The notes beneath the pieces are model-generated. The model did no database searches, was not told the origin of the DNA, and worked only from the letters and a program-made list of their open reading frames with translations. From a virus (Duplodnaviria; Heunggongvirae; Uroviricota; Caudoviricetes): a stretch of DNA of 64,000 nucleotides. The DNA is taken from the IMG/VR virus record IMGVR_UViG_3300026980_000004; one strand, given 5' to 3'. Position numbers and translations under genes: made by a program. Shown here piece by piece: positions 8,907-22,450 of this stretch (within the stretch, counting starts at the first letter, position 1; every line of letters begins with the position of its first letter).

Positions 8907-9012
8907 CAAAGTTAATTAACTTTTTTAGAATACAAAACATTTATTTAAATTTTTTTCAAAAAAAAATCCCCAGAAACTTTCTGAGGAATTTTAAATATCT
9001 AAATTGATTTAA
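8907..9012 (-). repeat. terminator-promoter repeat element
   Basis: hairpin 8967-8987; TAACTTTG -7 box at 8907-8914. Confidence 0.85.
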
Positions 9013-9540
9013 TTAAACTGTGTGATACTGAATTGCTTCTGCCAAATATTCCAGTTTAATTTCTTTTGAATTGTGCAATTGTGCAATTACTCTAGAAATT
9101 TGAATAATTGAATCTAATTTAATTAAATCAATATTATCTAACTTACTATATGCATTACTTAGTAACGCTCTACCTGCCTCGGATAATTTAAATTCAGGTA
9201 AAACATTTGATTTTGCTTCATTTGAACGTTTCACAACTAAATCAACACTCTCTGATATTCTATTTGAAATAATTTCAGAAATATGAGGAACTGAAATTTC
9301 AAGATTCAAATGAATTTTTTCCAAGTCTCTCAAGCCATACTCTTCTGTTGTAAAATCTACCTCATCAAATAATTCAGATAAGATAATTAAATCATTATCA
9401 GTCGGTTTCTTATCATCTACATTAGAAGCCTTGACCAAGCGAATTGTAAATCCACCTAGTAAGGCAATTTCGAATGCTCTAGACAAATGTGAGTACAATC
9501 CAGTAACATTGTCTCTGTCTAATAAAACTAAATTTCTCAT
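9013..9540 (-). CDS. truncated ComM/YifB (Mg-chelatase-related) protein lacking the P-loop
   Basis: N-terminal VTGL..LSRAFEIALLGG and C-terminal IIQISRVIAQL..SKEI..EYLAEAIQY resemble ComM/YifB segments; no GxxGxGK. Confidence 0.7.
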   Translation of the reverse strand: MRNLVLLDRDNVTGLYSHLSRAFEIALLGGFTIRLVKASNVDDKKPTDNDLIILSELFDEVDFTTEEYGLRDLEKIHLNLEISVPHISEIISNRISESVDLVVKRSNEAKSNVLPEFKLSEAGRALLSNAYSKLDNIDLIKLDSIIQISRVIAQLHNSKEIKLEYLAEAIQYHTV

Positions 9541-9575: not shown

Positions 9576-9657
9576 CAAATATACAAATAACATTGTGATA
9601 ATTAAAAAAATCCCCAGAAAATTTCTGAGGATTTTAAATCAATCAACTTAACCTTAA
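9576..9657 (-). repeat. terminator-promoter repeat element
   Basis: hairpin 9611-9631; TATATTTG at 9576-9583. Confidence 0.88.
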
Positions 9658-10019
9658 CTATCTAACCTTAATCTTTTCAATTCAATTGAAAAATTAAATG
9701 CACGTTCCATTGGTGTGGGTTCATTATCAATTTCACGGAATTCGGGTGTGAAATAACCATCATCAGTATAAATATTCTCATTTGTTTCCCCATTAAATTT
9801 ATTTAAAATAAATTCAATTTCAGGTGTTTTCGGTAAAATCAAATCTAACCAAACATATGAATAATTTTGTTTAAAAATTGACCAAGGAAATACCGTGTTT
9901 TCAATTACTCGAACATTGTTAGGGAATTGGTAAATGTCTCTTACTGTCGATCTATTTACATTAATAGATTCTATTGCTTCTGCTTTATTAAGCCACTCAT
10001 TGTAAGCTAAAGTATTCAT
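9654..10019 (-). CDS. hypothetical protein
   Basis: start moved to MNTLAY, downstream of the promoter at 10050. Confidence 0.7.
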   Translation of the reverse strand: MNTLAYNEWLNKAEAIESINVNRSTVRDIYQFPNNVRVIENTVFPWSIFKQNYSYVWLDLILPKTPEIEFILNKFNGETNENIYTDDGYFTPEFREIDNEPTPMERAFNFSIELKRLRLDS

Positions 10020-10049
10020 GTTAATATCGGTTAAATTTGATTTAATAAT

Positions 10050-10115
10050 CAAATATATAAATAACATTGTTAAAAACAAAAAAAATCCCCAGAAAATTTC
10101 TGAGGACTTTTAAAT
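10050..10115 (-). repeat. terminator-promoter repeat element
   Basis: hairpin 10086-10106; TATATTTG at 10050-10057. Confidence 0.9.
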
Positions 10116-15864: not shown

Positions 15865-18534
15865 TTATTTTTTTATACCTATTATATAGATAAACATATC
15901 ATCAGTAAAATCATCATGTATTGTAAAGTTATTATTTTTTATTTCATTTTTTAATTCTTCTATTTTATCCATCCATCTATTTTTTGGTTCCACTATTAAC
16001 ACATATTGATATGGTTTTAATATTCTATTAGCTTCTTTAATATATTCGTTATAATTAGTTCCCATAAGAGATAATGAGAATATAACCACATCCATAGAAT
16101 TATCTTCTAGTGGTGTGTTAGATATATCACATGCAATTACTTCATCATTTATTGCTATATGATCAAATGAATATAATTTATTTTGTATTAGAGTTCTTAG
16201 AGGGTCTAATCCACAACCTAGGTCTGCCACAATCCAATCTGGTCTTTTATTTACATAATCAACAATATAATCAAGATGATTAGTTTTCCATTTAGATTTT
16301 AGTTCATTATAATATGTATGATATAGTTCCCATTCCTTTGGGTTTTTAGTTAGTTTTATATTTAGGTTTTTCGAATTTGAGTTATACCATCCGTTATTAA
16401 TATAAGTAAAATCCCTATATTTCTTTTTTGCTTTGTTATAGTCAATATCGATTAATGGTACTGTAATTTTATTTCTATTTATGATTAAATCATAATTTCC
16501 TGTTTGTATTCTATTAATAATATTATTTAATGCAATTTTAGCATTTTCAAAAAGAGTTTCTGGTTTAGGTATATTTCCGTTTGTTGGTAATTTACCATCG
16601 ATTGCAGCATCTGATATAGTTCTTTTATTTTTTATGATAGGTAACCTATAATCTCTATCAAAAGACCATTCACCATATGGTTGATGTCTTATTATGATTT
16701 GAGGAATTAAGATATCTACAGTGTTTTTGGGGTATCCAATTCTACACAACCTACCAACAATTTGATCGTACTCAGCAGTCGTCCAAGGAAGTGATAAGAA
16801 TATAATTTTATTAAAGTTATATTGAAGTCCATTAACTCCAGTACTAAGAGGCATACTACCAATAATGATATCAATATCACCATTGATTGCGGAATTTAAA
16901 ACATTATCTCTTTCTTTTGGGTTATCTCCAGTGAATTTTTCAATTCTATAATTTGTTTTTTCTCTTAATAAATTAAAAGCTTTATTAACAATATTAGTTG
17001 TGTATTGTGTATAGATAATCGTACCCTTTGTAATTAAATTATTTTCTAGTAAATAATTTAATTTAATTGGGGATAGAATGATATCCATATCTGGTGTTGA
17101 TCCGCTTCTTTGTATTTTGGTTATCTCATTTATATAGTAATGCCCATCTATTTCTATTTCTGTTTGATTTAGTTTAATATCACTAAAATCCAGTATATAT
17201 CTTAATCCGTTTATGGTTAATTGTTTAAATATACTAATACAACTATTAACATCATTTGTTGTTGTTAATTCTGGATATTCTTCACCAGTAATCATTTCCA
17301 AAATTGCTTTTGCCTCTGATAATTCATTTATAACTGGAGTTGCTGTCATACCTAAAACTTTCAAATTTTCATTTTTTTCACCAGCTTTTATTACCAAAGT
17401 ATTTATTAATTTTCTTCTTGTAGATGTTTCTGAATTATCTCTTTTTTTTACTAATTGTATTTCATCCAATACGATAAAATCAATGATATTGTTATCAACT
17501 ATTTTAAGTATATAATTTTGAAATGAGGTATTCTGATATTTTTCATAATTAAATATAACATAATTATGTTTATTCTTATTGAATATATAATTATTTCTAC
17601 TAGGATTTGTGATTACATTAGAATCTGGAAAAGCATTTTTTATATTATCTTTCCATGTTTTAACTGTAGAGTTATATACAACAATAATTGTTAATTTTGC
17701 ATTAATATATCTAGATGCTATTATTGCTGATAATGTTTTACCAGAACCCGTTCCAGACCAATTACCATATCTATTTTTTTTACTTAATCTATAGCAAATT
17801 AATTTTTGCATCAGATTAGGTTTTACAATATTATTATTAATATCTTTATATTGAAAACCTTCTGGTATAACAAGATTATTTACTTCTTGATATTCTTTTA
17901 GAAATAATTCTCTAAATTCAGTTAGATTTTTTCCGAAGTTTATTTCATTTGAATTTAATTCGTTTAAGATTTCTGTATTACCGTTAAGAACTTGATTCCA
18001 AATTTTATTTAAATTAATTTTAAAAATAAATTCTATAGTTTCCAGATCATCTGATTGTACTAAATTAGAATCTATATATTGAAGATTTTTTATTTTAACT
18101 TTTTGTTCTCTTAATTCATATTCTTTTTCTAGGGTAATGGTGTCAAATTCTTTTATAGGTAGATCATCTTGATCATTTATTATTGTTTGTGTATTATTAT
18201 TATTTTTAGTTAATTGTTCGGTTGTTTTTAATTTGATTAAATTATCAATTGAACAATCTTGTTCAATTTTTGATAGGATATTTTCTATAAATTCAACTCT
18301 TTCTTTATTAGTATTAGGTTTTGTTGAAAATTCGTTGAATATTGAAGAATTTAGTAAACATTTTATTGCTTCATCGTTTTGTTTTTCTCTGATTAGAATT
18401 AAAAGTTCTGCATCACTTAATACTGTGATGTAATCTTTCAATTTTTCAAGGAAATTAATCAGATTGGTTAACTCAAGGTTCTTCTTTTTGAGTATTTTTG
18501 TAAAAAAGTTAATATCTTCTTTATTCTCGTACAT
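15865..18534 (-). CDS. SF2 helicase fused to C-terminal Rrp8/Methyltransf_8-like SAM methyltransferase
   Basis: GTGSGKT, LDEIQ, TAT, QIVGRLCR; VADLGCG...IACDISNTPLEDNSMDVVIFSLSLMGTN...EANRILK. Confidence 0.85.
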   Translation of the reverse strand: MYENKEDINFFTKILKKKNLELTNLINFLEKLKDYITVLSDAELLILIREKQNDEAIKCLLNSSIFNEFSTKPNTNKERVEFIENILSKIEQDCSIDNLIKLKTTEQLTKNNNNTQTIINDQDDLPIKEFDTITLEKEYELREQKVKIKNLQYIDSNLVQSDDLETIEFIFKINLNKIWNQVLNGNTEILNELNSNEINFGKNLTEFRELFLKEYQEVNNLVIPEGFQYKDINNNIVKPNLMQKLICYRLSKKNRYGNWSGTGSGKTLSAIIASRYINAKLTIIVVYNSTVKTWKDNIKNAFPDSNVITNPSRNNYIFNKNKHNYVIFNYEKYQNTSFQNYILKIVDNNIIDFIVLDEIQLVKKRDNSETSTRRKLINTLVIKAGEKNENLKVLGMTATPVINELSEAKAILEMITGEEYPELTTTNDVNSCISIFKQLTINGLRYILDFSDIKLNQTEIEIDGHYYINEITKIQRSGSTPDMDIILSPIKLNYLLENNLITKGTIIYTQYTTNIVNKAFNLLREKTNYRIEKFTGDNPKERDNVLNSAINGDIDIIIGSMPLSTGVNGLQYNFNKIIFLSLPWTTAEYDQIVGRLCRIGYPKNTVDILIPQIIIRHQPYGEWSFDRDYRLPIIKNKRTISDAAIDGKLPTNGNIPKPETLFENAKIALNNIINRIQTGNYDLIINRNKITVPLIDIDYNKAKKKYRDFTYINNGWYNSNSKNLNIKLTKNPKEWELYHTYYNELKSKWKTNHLDYIVDYVNKRPDWIVADLGCGLDPLRTLIQNKLYSFDHIAINDEVIACDISNTPLEDNSMDVVIFSLSLMGTNYNEYIKEANRILKPYQYVLIVEPKNRWMDKIEELKNEIKNNNFTIHDDFTDDMFIYIIGIKK

Positions 18535-18635: not shown

Positions 18636-19052
18636 ATGAAAATTGAAATATCTAATTACGATGCACAGAAGAAATTTAATGCATTATATTGGGGTCAGCC
18701 AGTTGGTGAGACATGGGTTGCTATTGGTTATAAGGATACGAAAGTTTGTCAAGCACAGGATGGTTTTAGATTAAGGTTAAAATCGGTTAATGACATTAGT
18801 GATGAGGATGCCATTGAGATTGCAAAAATGTATTCTTTAAATATTAATAAGAATGAGTATAGTGTATATAAAAATGATTTTGGTAAAACGTTTGTTTCTT
18901 GGGGTGAGACATATTTAGAAAAATTATTAATCGATGATGTTCTTACTAAAAGTGAGAGTGTTGATTACCTAAGATCAAAAGGATATGCATTGCCATATTT
19001 AGGATTAAGCGTTCAAGATTTAATAAATGCAGGATGGGTCAAGCTAGTTTAA
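18636..19052 (+). CDS. hypothetical protein
   Basis: 138 aa; TACATTTG -7 box at about 18596. Confidence 0.75.
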   Translation: MKIEISNYDAQKKFNALYWGQPVGETWVAIGYKDTKVCQAQDGFRLRLKSVNDISDEDAIEIAKMYSLNINKNEYSVYKNDFGKTFVSWGETYLEKLLIDDVLTKSESVDYLRSKGYALPYLGLSVQDLINAGWVKLV

Positions 19053-19615
19053 TATGGAAAGATGTTGAAGGGTACGAAGGATTGTATCAAGTTTCAACAA
19101 CAGGGTTGGTGAAATCACTGTCTTCTAATAAAGGAAATCAATATTCTAATAAAGTGTTTCTAAAAAAACAATTTTTAAACAGGTACGGATATTTAATGGT
19201 AACCTTTAGAAAAAATGGTGTTAGAAAAAATTTTACTGTACATAAGCTAGTAGCTAAAGCATTTCTCTCAAATCCTGAAAACAAGCCTCAAGTCAATCAC
19301 ATAAATGGAAATAAGATTTGTAACAGAGTTGAAAATTTAGAATGGTGTACGTCAAGTGAAAATCAAAAACACCGATTTAATACACTTAATCATACTGTAT
19401 ATAATAGACTACTTAACAAAAATGAGGTTTTTGAAATATTATCTCAAAAAGGGAAAGGTTGGAGAAAAGAAATTTCTAAAAAACTAGGTGTTTCTGAGGC
19501 TTGTATTAAAGCAGTTAGATCAGGTAGAAATTATAGTGATTGGTACAAAGAATTTATGGGATTAAGTGTTGATGATATGGTTGAGGGTGGTTGGATTAAA
19601 TTGATTGAGATATGA
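19034..19615 (+). CDS. NUMOD4-HNH homing endonuclease
   Basis: WKDVEGYEGLYQVSTTGLVKS (NUMOD4); VHKLVAKAF...VNHINGNKICNRVENLEWCT..EN (HNH). Confidence 0.9.
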   Translation: MGQASLIWKDVEGYEGLYQVSTTGLVKSLSSNKGNQYSNKVFLKKQFLNRYGYLMVTFRKNGVRKNFTVHKLVAKAFLSNPENKPQVNHINGNKICNRVENLEWCTSSENQKHRFNTLNHTVYNRLLNKNEVFEILSQKGKGWRKEISKKLGVSEACIKAVRSGRNYSDWYKEFMGLSVDDMVEGGWIKLIEI

Positions 19616-21654: not shown

Positions 21655-21712
21655 AACTATTTGTATATTATATGCAAATATAATGTTTTTTATTGAAAAT
21701 GTATTTATATGT

Positions 21713-22450
21713 ATGAAAATTATTTCTATAATTAATGAAGAGATTTCTTCTATATTAGGTGAGAATAAATTAGAAGATAATATATCATTTACAGATACAC
21801 TACAATTTAAGAATTGGTTTGGTAATTCTAAGGTAGTCGATAAAGAAGGTAATCCATTACCCGTATATCACGGTAGTCCAGTTGGTGGTATAGAAAATTT
21901 CAAGAATAAGGATGGTGTTATCGAAGTTTTATCAAGTGGGTTGAAAGAATATGGTATTTTCTTTACAACAAATATTGAGTTAGCTAAATTATATAAAGAA
22001 AATAGAAAATTATCACCAGAATATATTAATAATATTAAAAAAGAGATAGTAAAATTACAGAATATACAGAATGATACAAGAAACAGTAAAGAATATTATG
22101 AATATAACGATATGATTGAAAAATTAAAGAGGAAATTAAGAGGTGAAATATATCAGTCATATTTAAAAATTGTAAATCCTTTTATATTTGATGCTAAAGG
22201 TAAGGATGGATATTATGGTTGGAAAGAAGCCAAGATTGATATTGGTTATAAAACAGCTGTTGGTTTCGATGCTATTGAAGCTGTTGCAGGATATAATTCA
22301 ATGTATAAATCCAATTATGATGGGATTATTGCAAAAAATATAATTGATTTTCACACGTATGGTAGTGATGATCCAAAACATAAAAATTTTCACGGAGATG
22401 CTTATGTAGTTTTTTCACCATCACAAATTATGATTGAAAAGGAAATTTAA
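21713..22450 (+). CDS. polyvalent-protein-type ADP-ribosyltransferase-like domain protein
   Basis: FKNWFGNSKVVD..GNPLPVYHGS...GIFFTTN...YDGII...YVVFSPSQI; leader MKIISIINEE; GTATTTATA at 21701. Confidence 0.7.
   Translation: MKIISIINEEISSILGENKLEDNISFTDTLQFKNWFGNSKVVDKEGNPLPVYHGSPVGGIENFKNKDGVIEVLSSGLKEYGIFFTTNIELAKLYKENRKLSPEYINNIKKEIVKLQNIQNDTRNSKEYYEYNDMIEKLKRKLRGEIYQSYLKIVNPFIFDAKGKDGYYGWKEAKIDIGYKTAVGFDAIEAVAGYNSMYKSNYDGIIAKNIIDFHTYGSDDPKHKNFHGDAYVVFSPSQIMIEKEI

Follow-up and report, generated by a model that had tools for sequence, protein, structure and literature searches.

In the MoxR/chelatase/ComM clade it is well established that active AAA+ proteins can be paired with inactive paralogues, and both the N-terminal module of BchD/ChlD in Mg-chelatase (BchD sits in ComM's broad clade) and the delta/delta' subunits of clamp loaders are inactive AAA+-like binding subunits. 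ORF104 of phage 77 is said, in the study devoted to it, to block self-assembly of the helicase loader DnaI. In the ring formed by the branch-migration helicase ComM/YifB (TIGR00368; Legionella ComM, PDB 8RXD/8RXT) nucleotide lies between the subunits, an arginine of the lid reaches the site of the neighbouring subunit and the lids are without mutual contact (PMC11612176). The subject here is a gene, termed mini-ComM, whose product resembles a hollowed-out ComM. It occupies positions 9013 to 9540, stop codon included, on the minus strand of a 64,000-nucleotide stretch of viral DNA (the window), which corresponds to bases 31971-95970 of the 265,845-bp IMG/VR virus record IMGVR_UViG_3300026980_000004, a record with direct terminal repeats. 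The phage, a jumbo phage of 266 kb, encodes a T4-like portal and large terminase. The protein, P0001, has 175 amino acids and an ATG start, and is the longest reading in its frame in the open reading frame list; this agrees with the intact frame claimed in a first-pass annotation made from the letters alone.

Helix alpha0, strand beta1, strand beta5 and the Mg_chelatase_C lid are common to mini-ComM and ComM. Unlike ComM, with its ~510 amino acids, the 175-residue protein is without Lon-like N-domain, Walker A and B, sensor 3, zinc finger, DNA-binding inserts and trans-acting arginine finger. With the BchD/ChlD module and delta/delta' it shares an AAA+ fold devoid of working nucleotide motifs, but they keep a full-size AAA+ core whereas here ~110-150 core residues, two of the five strands among them, are missing. 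Should mini-ComM prove to inhibit, its nearest precedent would be ORF104, a small phage protein which binds a host AAA+ ATPase domain with a part in DNA metabolism, that of the S. aureus helicase loader DnaI (PMC4887207). Unlike mini-ComM, which is the skeleton of its own putative target, ORF104 did not arise from the fold of the protein it binds. The same concept, a phage look-alike of a host component, is represented by a phage antitoxin mimic directed against DarTG (bioRxiv 10.1101/2023.12.14.571748), but that is a different system and one in which the interaction is demonstrated, whereas for mini-ComM and ComM we only infer one. The gene product is a 'half AAA+' module, derived from ComM/YifB and without catalytic capacity, and mini-ComM is a real, new and non-catalytic viral variant of an AAA+ protein, its family being large, old and uncharacterised.

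Descent from ComM/YifB is apparent at both ends of the protein. In a search of 5.8 billion sequences for longer relatives, the family profile returned Bacteroidota YifB/ComM (~512 amino acids) at the top, with E down to 1.4e-19. Residues 73-175 (9016..9324, minus strand), made up of strand beta5 (IHLNLEI) and a four- to five-helix Mg_chelatase_C lid with LAEAIQY near its end, match ComM 383-505 by BLASTP with 35% identity (E 7e-16), and comparison of the family profile with Bacteroidota ComM by hhalign pairs residues ~66-175 with ComM 385-509 (probability 99.7%, E 2.4e-25). The Pfam lid model (Mg_chelatase_C, PF13335) scores 28.3 bits, against a cut-off of 26, over residues 88-172, and residues 443-497 of the ComM in PDB entry 8rxd are the counterpart of the lid segment. 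At the other end, residues 13-39 (9424..9504, minus strand), comprising helix alpha0 (LSRAFEIALLGG) and strand beta1, correspond to ComM 197-223 directly before Walker A, by column comparison, by hhalign of this piece alone (probability 94%, P 1.2e-7) and by a second BLASTP high-scoring segment pair that is collinear with the C-terminal one (P0001 7-41 against ComM 192-225, E 0.009). The helix and strand of ComM matched in this way terminate exactly at the start of the Walker A GPPGAGKT (GPPGxGKT). Overall identity of P0001 to any ComM is ~30-35%. The first-pass annotation had proposed that the segment preceding Walker A and the whole Mg_chelatase_C-like tail are retained, and both proposals stand, each end being significantly similar to ComM. 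It had further proposed a segment like that which follows the arginine finger. Here strand beta5 is indeed retained, but the arginine finger as named in the Legionella ComM structure is R463, a lid residue, and not the LLDR arginine before beta5.

What has been lost between the two ends is the catalytic centre. A Walker A or Walker B-like motif is present in none of 164 short family members, as against both motifs in 120 of 120 ComMs, and ComM ~226-382, with the zinc-finger insert and the DNA-binding core inserts, is without counterpart in P0001, which bears out the initial impression that Walker A/B and most of the AAA+ core are missing. Where the P-loop GPPGAGKT would be there stands a loop, residues 37-44 (KASNVDDK; 9409..9432, minus strand), and the column table has no conserved G, K or T at this position, many members having a gap. 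Residues 45-72 (9325..9408, minus strand), a short helix (48-57) and a short strand (63-65) in the secondary structure from AlphaFold2, replace ~110-150 residues of the ComM core. Alignment of this middle segment of P0001 itself to ComM is not significant; in other family members its counterpart matches ComM 344-419, which extends from the sensor-1 strand up to and including beta5. The zinc finger (CPCG...CxC) is absent because P0001 has no cysteine, and Pfam gives no match in P0001 to the Lon-protease-like N-domain (ChlI, PF13541), homology beginning at ~ComM 192 with 12 residues ahead of it. The arginine finger of the solved Legionella ComM, R463 in the lid, acts in trans on the nucleotide of the neighbour (PMC11612176). 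Its equivalents are R470 in Bacteroidota ComM and I140 in P0001, and in the R470 column, which is R in 100% of ComMs, minis have K (18%), Y (14%), S (10%) or, in 7%, R; the LLDR arginine before beta5 is likewise lost in the mini family. Against the NCBIfam model TIGR00368 (YifB) P0001 scores 25.3 bits, the curated cut-off being 362.4, and matches only profile positions 437-498, the last 62. Six of seven defining features tested are lacking, the lid domain is the only one present, and P0001 is not a member of ComM/YifB.

Helix alpha0, strand beta1, strand beta5 and the complete lid have been kept, and the position of the sensor-1 strand is probably retained. Since the middle segment of other members aligns as described, the deleted block is roughly ComM 232-343, that is helix alpha1, beta2, the helix-2 insert, Walker B/beta3 and the PS1 hairpin. 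The strand order of the AAA+ sheet is 5-1-4-3-2. From this textbook topology, together with the ComM 344-419 alignment, one half of the sheet, the contiguous beta5-beta1-beta4, would be left, accompanied by alpha0 and the lid. The AlphaFold2 model of P0001 (single chain, 16-sequence alignment) is compact and confident, with a predicted local distance difference test score of 83.9 and a predicted template modelling score of 0.83, and has helix 17-29, strand 32-37, helix 48-57, short strand 63-65 and strand 77-82 followed by the helical lid, the AAA+ base being cut down to three strands. In comparisons with VIA-align its best match is Legionella pneumophila ComM 8rxt_A (Z 11.8, root-mean-square deviation 2.9, 158 of the 175 residues, model 8-175 against chain 190-498), with further matches to ComM (Z 11.4), BchI/ChlI (Z 10-10.8), MCM (Z ~9-10) and RavA, those to ComM, BchI/ChlI and MCM each spanning model ~8-175; it thus superposes on the AAA+ module, base and lid together, of the MCM/chelatase/ComM group. 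Foldseek matches in the PDB are weak (E ~3e-3) and are all to MCM or ComM. A structure search of the ESM Atlas agrees, giving full-length YifB clusters and, as the top row beside them, a 133-member cluster with a 198-amino-acid representative, 83% of whose 24 members with known phylum are from viruses. The viral structure library BFVD held no convincing match to the model.

Mini-ComM has many relatives of its own kind. Near-length homologues number 16, at 32-60% identity and with 22 invariant columns in common, and phmmer, run exhaustively against 1.84 billion cluster representatives, yielded 162 proteins at E <= 1e-3, nearly all of 150-230 amino acids and aligning end to end; the family thus comprises at least 162 clusters at 50% identity. 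The median length of short family members is 181 amino acids. A 90-sequence alignment with a mean column identity of 22% has R21 and E168 invariant and 13 further columns conserved to at least 90%. The best-conserved residues of the family, R21, E24, G29, E81, E97, R105, L126, A130, I152, A153, H165, A167, E168, A169 and Y172, have as their equivalents residues invariant in ComM, in the same order R205, E208, G213, E391, E407, R415, L457, A461, I482, A483, H495, A497, E498, A499 and Y502. P0001 carries the whole of the family signature, which consists of a length of 150-230 amino acids, an N-terminal xLSRA[YF]E[IV]AxxG helix leading straight into a strand, the absence of a P-loop and a C-terminal H[IL]AEAIQY. 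Because the same length and architecture recur in at least 162 clusters with R21 and E168 invariant, the sequences speak for constraint and not decay, and mini-ComM is under purifying selection at the protein level. The deletion is no isolated event, minis being encoded on nine IMG/VR contigs that are 20-94 kb long. Over half of the ancestral protein has gone, which is what might be expected of a decaying, functionless remnant of a captured comM. That such is the nature of the gene is scarcely credible: the reading is contradicted by conservation that is family-wide, and a compact and confidently predicted fold, an intact frame and the gene's own expression signals also tell against it. The suggestion of a DNA mimic was dropped for want of support, the family being only mildly acidic (median isoelectric point 5.5).

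Family proteins, where databases name them, are 'hypothetical protein', and searches of the literature brought up no paper that describes them. P0001 has no significant match among PHROGs (best E 0.25), zero matches to the defence and counter-defence families of PADLOC and, when used as a single sequence with phmmer, no match to PDB sequences. In the searches made, the mini family was found only in viral or metagenomic DNA. Its profile, run against 401 Bacteroidota genomes, detected no mini; a ComM match was present in 387 of them, and almost all of the matches listed had an open frame of full length. When the N-terminal motif was sought as a degenerate DNA pattern in 185,579 species genomes there were 9 matches, about as many as the ~9 estimated by chance, and none was a mini. 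A tblastn search with P0001 of GenBank phages gave nothing, and with two other minis it matched only unannotated 'Bacteriophage sp.' records from human faeces, in which there was no mini. The three of these records that were examined (MT835528, MT835672 and MT835546) hold a full-length, 515-amino-acid ComM with intact Walker motifs, which is either phage-borne or bacterial DNA in the records. One metagenome scan returned no mini, its output being swamped by full-length Bacteroidota-type YifB genes.

Short frames matching the family profile in Bacteroidota genomes were considered as minis and rejected, being ordinary comM fragments that begin at about position 350. Four genomes (G130, G262, G288 and G366) have stand-alone frames of 176-221 amino acids that cover ComM ~348-512 only and score 245-292 bits with the ComM profile, as fits split comM genes. 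Stand-alone comM fragments in Bacteroidota genomes are near-identical parts of the host gene, at 245-500 bits to the ComM profile and without an alpha0-beta1 of their own, whereas mini-ComM is a diverged, self-contained gene in phages that are without large serine recombinases. Disruption of comM by insertion of mobile elements is common. It could be envisaged that a phage integrating into the host comM brings a replacement piece that keeps the host gene intact; in favour of this, 3' fragments starting at ComM ~350 stand alone in 4 of 401 Bacteroidota genomes, and the retained middle of some minis begins near ComM 344-348. The idea is nevertheless very improbable and was rejected as no large serine recombinase was found: the corresponding domain, PF07508, is absent from this phage and from five further viral records with a mini, of which three have a completeness of 90% or more, and the sole serine recombinase here is a 192-amino-acid open frame ~220 kb away. 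The mini moreover has its own start codon, promoter box, terminator and pre-Walker-A segment, and with its ~30-35% identity to any ComM it lies outside the cellular ComM clade.

For phylogeny, 79 minis and 24 ComMs were spliced to their common parts and a quick maximum-likelihood tree was built, the named ComMs being from Bacteroidota, Gammaproteobacteria, Eubacteriales, Streptomyces and Chloroflexota, and the others being unlabelled metagenomic or viral-record sequences. A single branch with a Shimodaira-Hasegawa-like approximate likelihood ratio test support of 99 divides all minis from all ComMs, and mini branches are long. Within the ComM subtree the point at which the minis join lies among lineages of Bacteroidota, although the forks there are without resolution; an origin from a Bacteroidota-type ComM is thus no more than suggested. 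Viral contigs of the same IMG/VR scan also hold other forms. One (L015:7317-8264, plus strand) encodes a 316-amino-acid intermediate with a Walker A (GQPSIGKT) but neither Walker B nor Lon-like domain, two (L017/L018:7200-8123, plus strand) a 308-amino-acid form with an N-terminal extension of ~120-130 residues and no Walker motifs, and another (L012) a full-length ComM of 475 amino acids with Walker A and B. The intermediates of L015 and L017/L018 suggest stepwise reduction of ComM in viruses.

What might such a truncated protein do? The single most likely mechanism, which we put forward tentatively, is that it binds a ComM/YifB-type protomer and blocks assembly. The dominant-negative poisoning of host ComM rings envisaged in the first-pass annotation is plausible. 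Mini-ComM would act by binding and not by catalysis, the likeliest partner being the host's ComM/YifB-type protomer. The retained beta5 and lid would be the side which, in the ComM ring, extends into the ATP site of the adjoining subunit, and the deleted half the side that would take the next subunit; with the docking side retained and the receiving side lost, a docked mini would therefore cap assembly and stop closure of the hexamer on DNA. Capping of ComM would block branch migration of three-stranded recombination intermediates, and the payoff for a T4-like phage might be protection of its own D-loop or recombination-dependent replication intermediates, or else a shutdown of host recombination. 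In Riemerella, a member of the Bacteroidota, YifB mutants have transformation down ~100-fold (PMC8459023). Since 387 of the 401 Bacteroidota genomes have a ComM match, the candidate target is near-universal in the likely host phylum. The proposal in its entirety, namely a widespread phage class hollowed from host ComM, with face and lid kept, serving during infection as a ring-capping inhibitor that protects phage intermediates or blocks host recombination or transformation, is unlikely as it stands; if true, it would be the first phage inhibitor of ComM and a template for viral AAA+ subunits as assembly poisons.

A number of considerations weigh against capping of ComM. In the absence of nucleotide and DNA, ComM is a monomer, and for oligomerisation it needs its Lon-like domain (PMC11612176, PMC6158740); the mini lacks both that domain and a nucleotide site. 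Minis vary at the lid arginines with which ComM touches the ATP of the adjoining subunit (Bacteroidota R470, R474 and R480), and conservation of the ComM-invariant residues may be mere maintenance of the fold. The minis are one lineage with no visible tracking of, or co-variation with, the ComMs of their hosts. Vibrio makes little ComM when not competent and can carry out repair without it, and thus the need of a lytic phage to block it is not evident; a search of the literature turned up no role of ComM in phage infection. Finally, the SNF2 helicase and AAA ATPase that lie near some minis also fit a role inside phage DNA metabolism.

The company that minis keep on other viral contigs bears directly on this last point. 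Just one neighbour recurs, an SNF2 helicase, which in three divergent viral contigs (L003, L006 and L016) is encoded at a distance of 2-5 kb from the mini; among the other neighbours across mini loci are an HNH endonuclease, a DNA methyltransferase and a protein resembling those of DNA repair. Together with the loss of the arginine finger and an old, separate, long-branched lineage such as neofunctionalisation would give, these associations favour an exapted scaffold, in which the ComM-derived fold serves as a small binding or accessory protein of the phage replication or recombination machinery and its partner (an SNF2-type helicase or other phage protein) is unrelated to ComM. We regard this as rather unlikely, though a serious contender. 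No neighbour is conserved over most mini loci; in the window the adjacent genes are all ORFans, and the phage's SNF2 helicase lies more than 50 kb off. The residues which the family retains are, besides, exactly those invariant in ComM.

In one of the contigs just mentioned an ATPase is close at hand. The stretch L003:8989-11252 (plus strand) encodes, ~400 nucleotides downstream of the mini, a 367-amino-acid AAA ATPase (phrog_1297, E 1e-67) with weaker matches to CobS-like 'porphyrin biosynthesis' and clamp-loader PHROGs, and then an HNH endonuclease (phrog_1314). By analogy with BchD beside BchI, or with delta/delta', the mini might be a non-catalytic partner, as regulator or adaptor, of some other AAA+ ATPase of the MoxR/chelatase/ComM clade, whether of phage or host, and the phage does have an 835-amino-acid protein with two AAA_5 domains. 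However, an ATPase neighbour occurs at one locus only, the AAA_5 protein is encoded ~216 kb from the mini-ComM gene and no PF01078 Mg_chelatase ATPase is present in the phage, and a partnership of this type seems quite improbable.

ComM/YifB is present not only in 387 of 401 Bacteroidota genomes but in many other bacteria. A diversified, non-catalytic viral skeleton of ComM suggests that phages, too, deal with ComM or with a partner of the ComM lid, and do so by means of a protein. If mini-ComM does bind ComM, it would be a natural and specific inhibitor with which to probe ComM in non-competent bacteria, and would give the first hint that ComM matters in phage infection. Whatever the function, an AAA+ module is reducible to three strands and a lid, some 175 residues, and is yet kept by selection, which is of relevance to AAA+ evolution and to protein design.

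The mini-ComM gene is embedded in an array of small minus-strand genes, its neighbours in the window being all ten ORFans by Pfam and PHROGs. Bacteroidota promoters have the consensus TTTG at -33 and TAnnTTTG at -7. Reading of the sequence places TATATTTG, a -7 promoter box of the Bacteroidota type, at 9576..9583 on the minus strand, 35 nucleotides upstream of the ATG. A terminator scan locates a hairpin followed by a T-run at 9607..9635 (minus strand), with which the upstream gene (9654..10079) terminates; the T-run is at the same time the -33 region. A further hairpin and T-run at 8958..8987 (minus strand), 26 nucleotides past the stop codon, found by the scan (8987-8967) and by alignment, is the terminator of mini-ComM and is without the TATATTTG box. 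These are instances of a repeated terminator-promoter element, of which there are 8 copies on the minus strand between window positions 1446 and 10105, between small ORFan genes. It consists of a hairpin (CCTCAGAAAnTTTCTGGGGA), a T-run usually ending in G, a spacer of ~19 nucleotides, TATATTTG and a conserved leader, ATCATTCAATCAA. The hairpin core CCTCAGAAAnTTTCTGGGGA occurs 8 times in the window against 0 expected. ATATTTG is in the same register in 7 of the 8 aligned copies, that of mini-ComM included, six of which read TATATTTG, the copy at 8967 being the one without it. The element fits a Bacteroidota host and transcription by the host polymerase, and the box at 9583-9576 would act as promoter, making mini-ComM a putative independently transcribed cassette among ORFan genes, with promoters that look to be of the Bacteroidota type. 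Of the early promoter and terminator with which the gene had been credited, the flanking hairpin terminators and the TATATTTG box are present, while 'early' remains conjecture.

Several other genes deserve mention. The product of window positions 15865-18534 on the minus strand is an 889-amino-acid fusion protein, an SF2/SNF2-like helicase (ResIII, Helicase_C) with a Methyltransf_8 domain (E 2.7e-37) at its C-terminus. On the plus strand, 19034-19615 is a homing-endonuclease-like gene with NUMOD4 and HNH_3 domains, a relative of which is beside the mini-bearing region of viral contig L008, and 21683-22450 encodes a 255-amino-acid protein with an ART-PolyVal ADP-ribosyltransferase domain (E 1.6e-16), a candidate host-modifying enzyme. 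Outside the window, at phage positions 261259-263442 near one genome end, a small serine recombinase (the 192-amino-acid frame) and a tyrosine recombinase (a 273-amino-acid frame) are encoded close together. In company with a T4-like virion module such a pair is unexpected, and it is a hint of dimer resolution or of a temperate or plasmid-like lifestyle.

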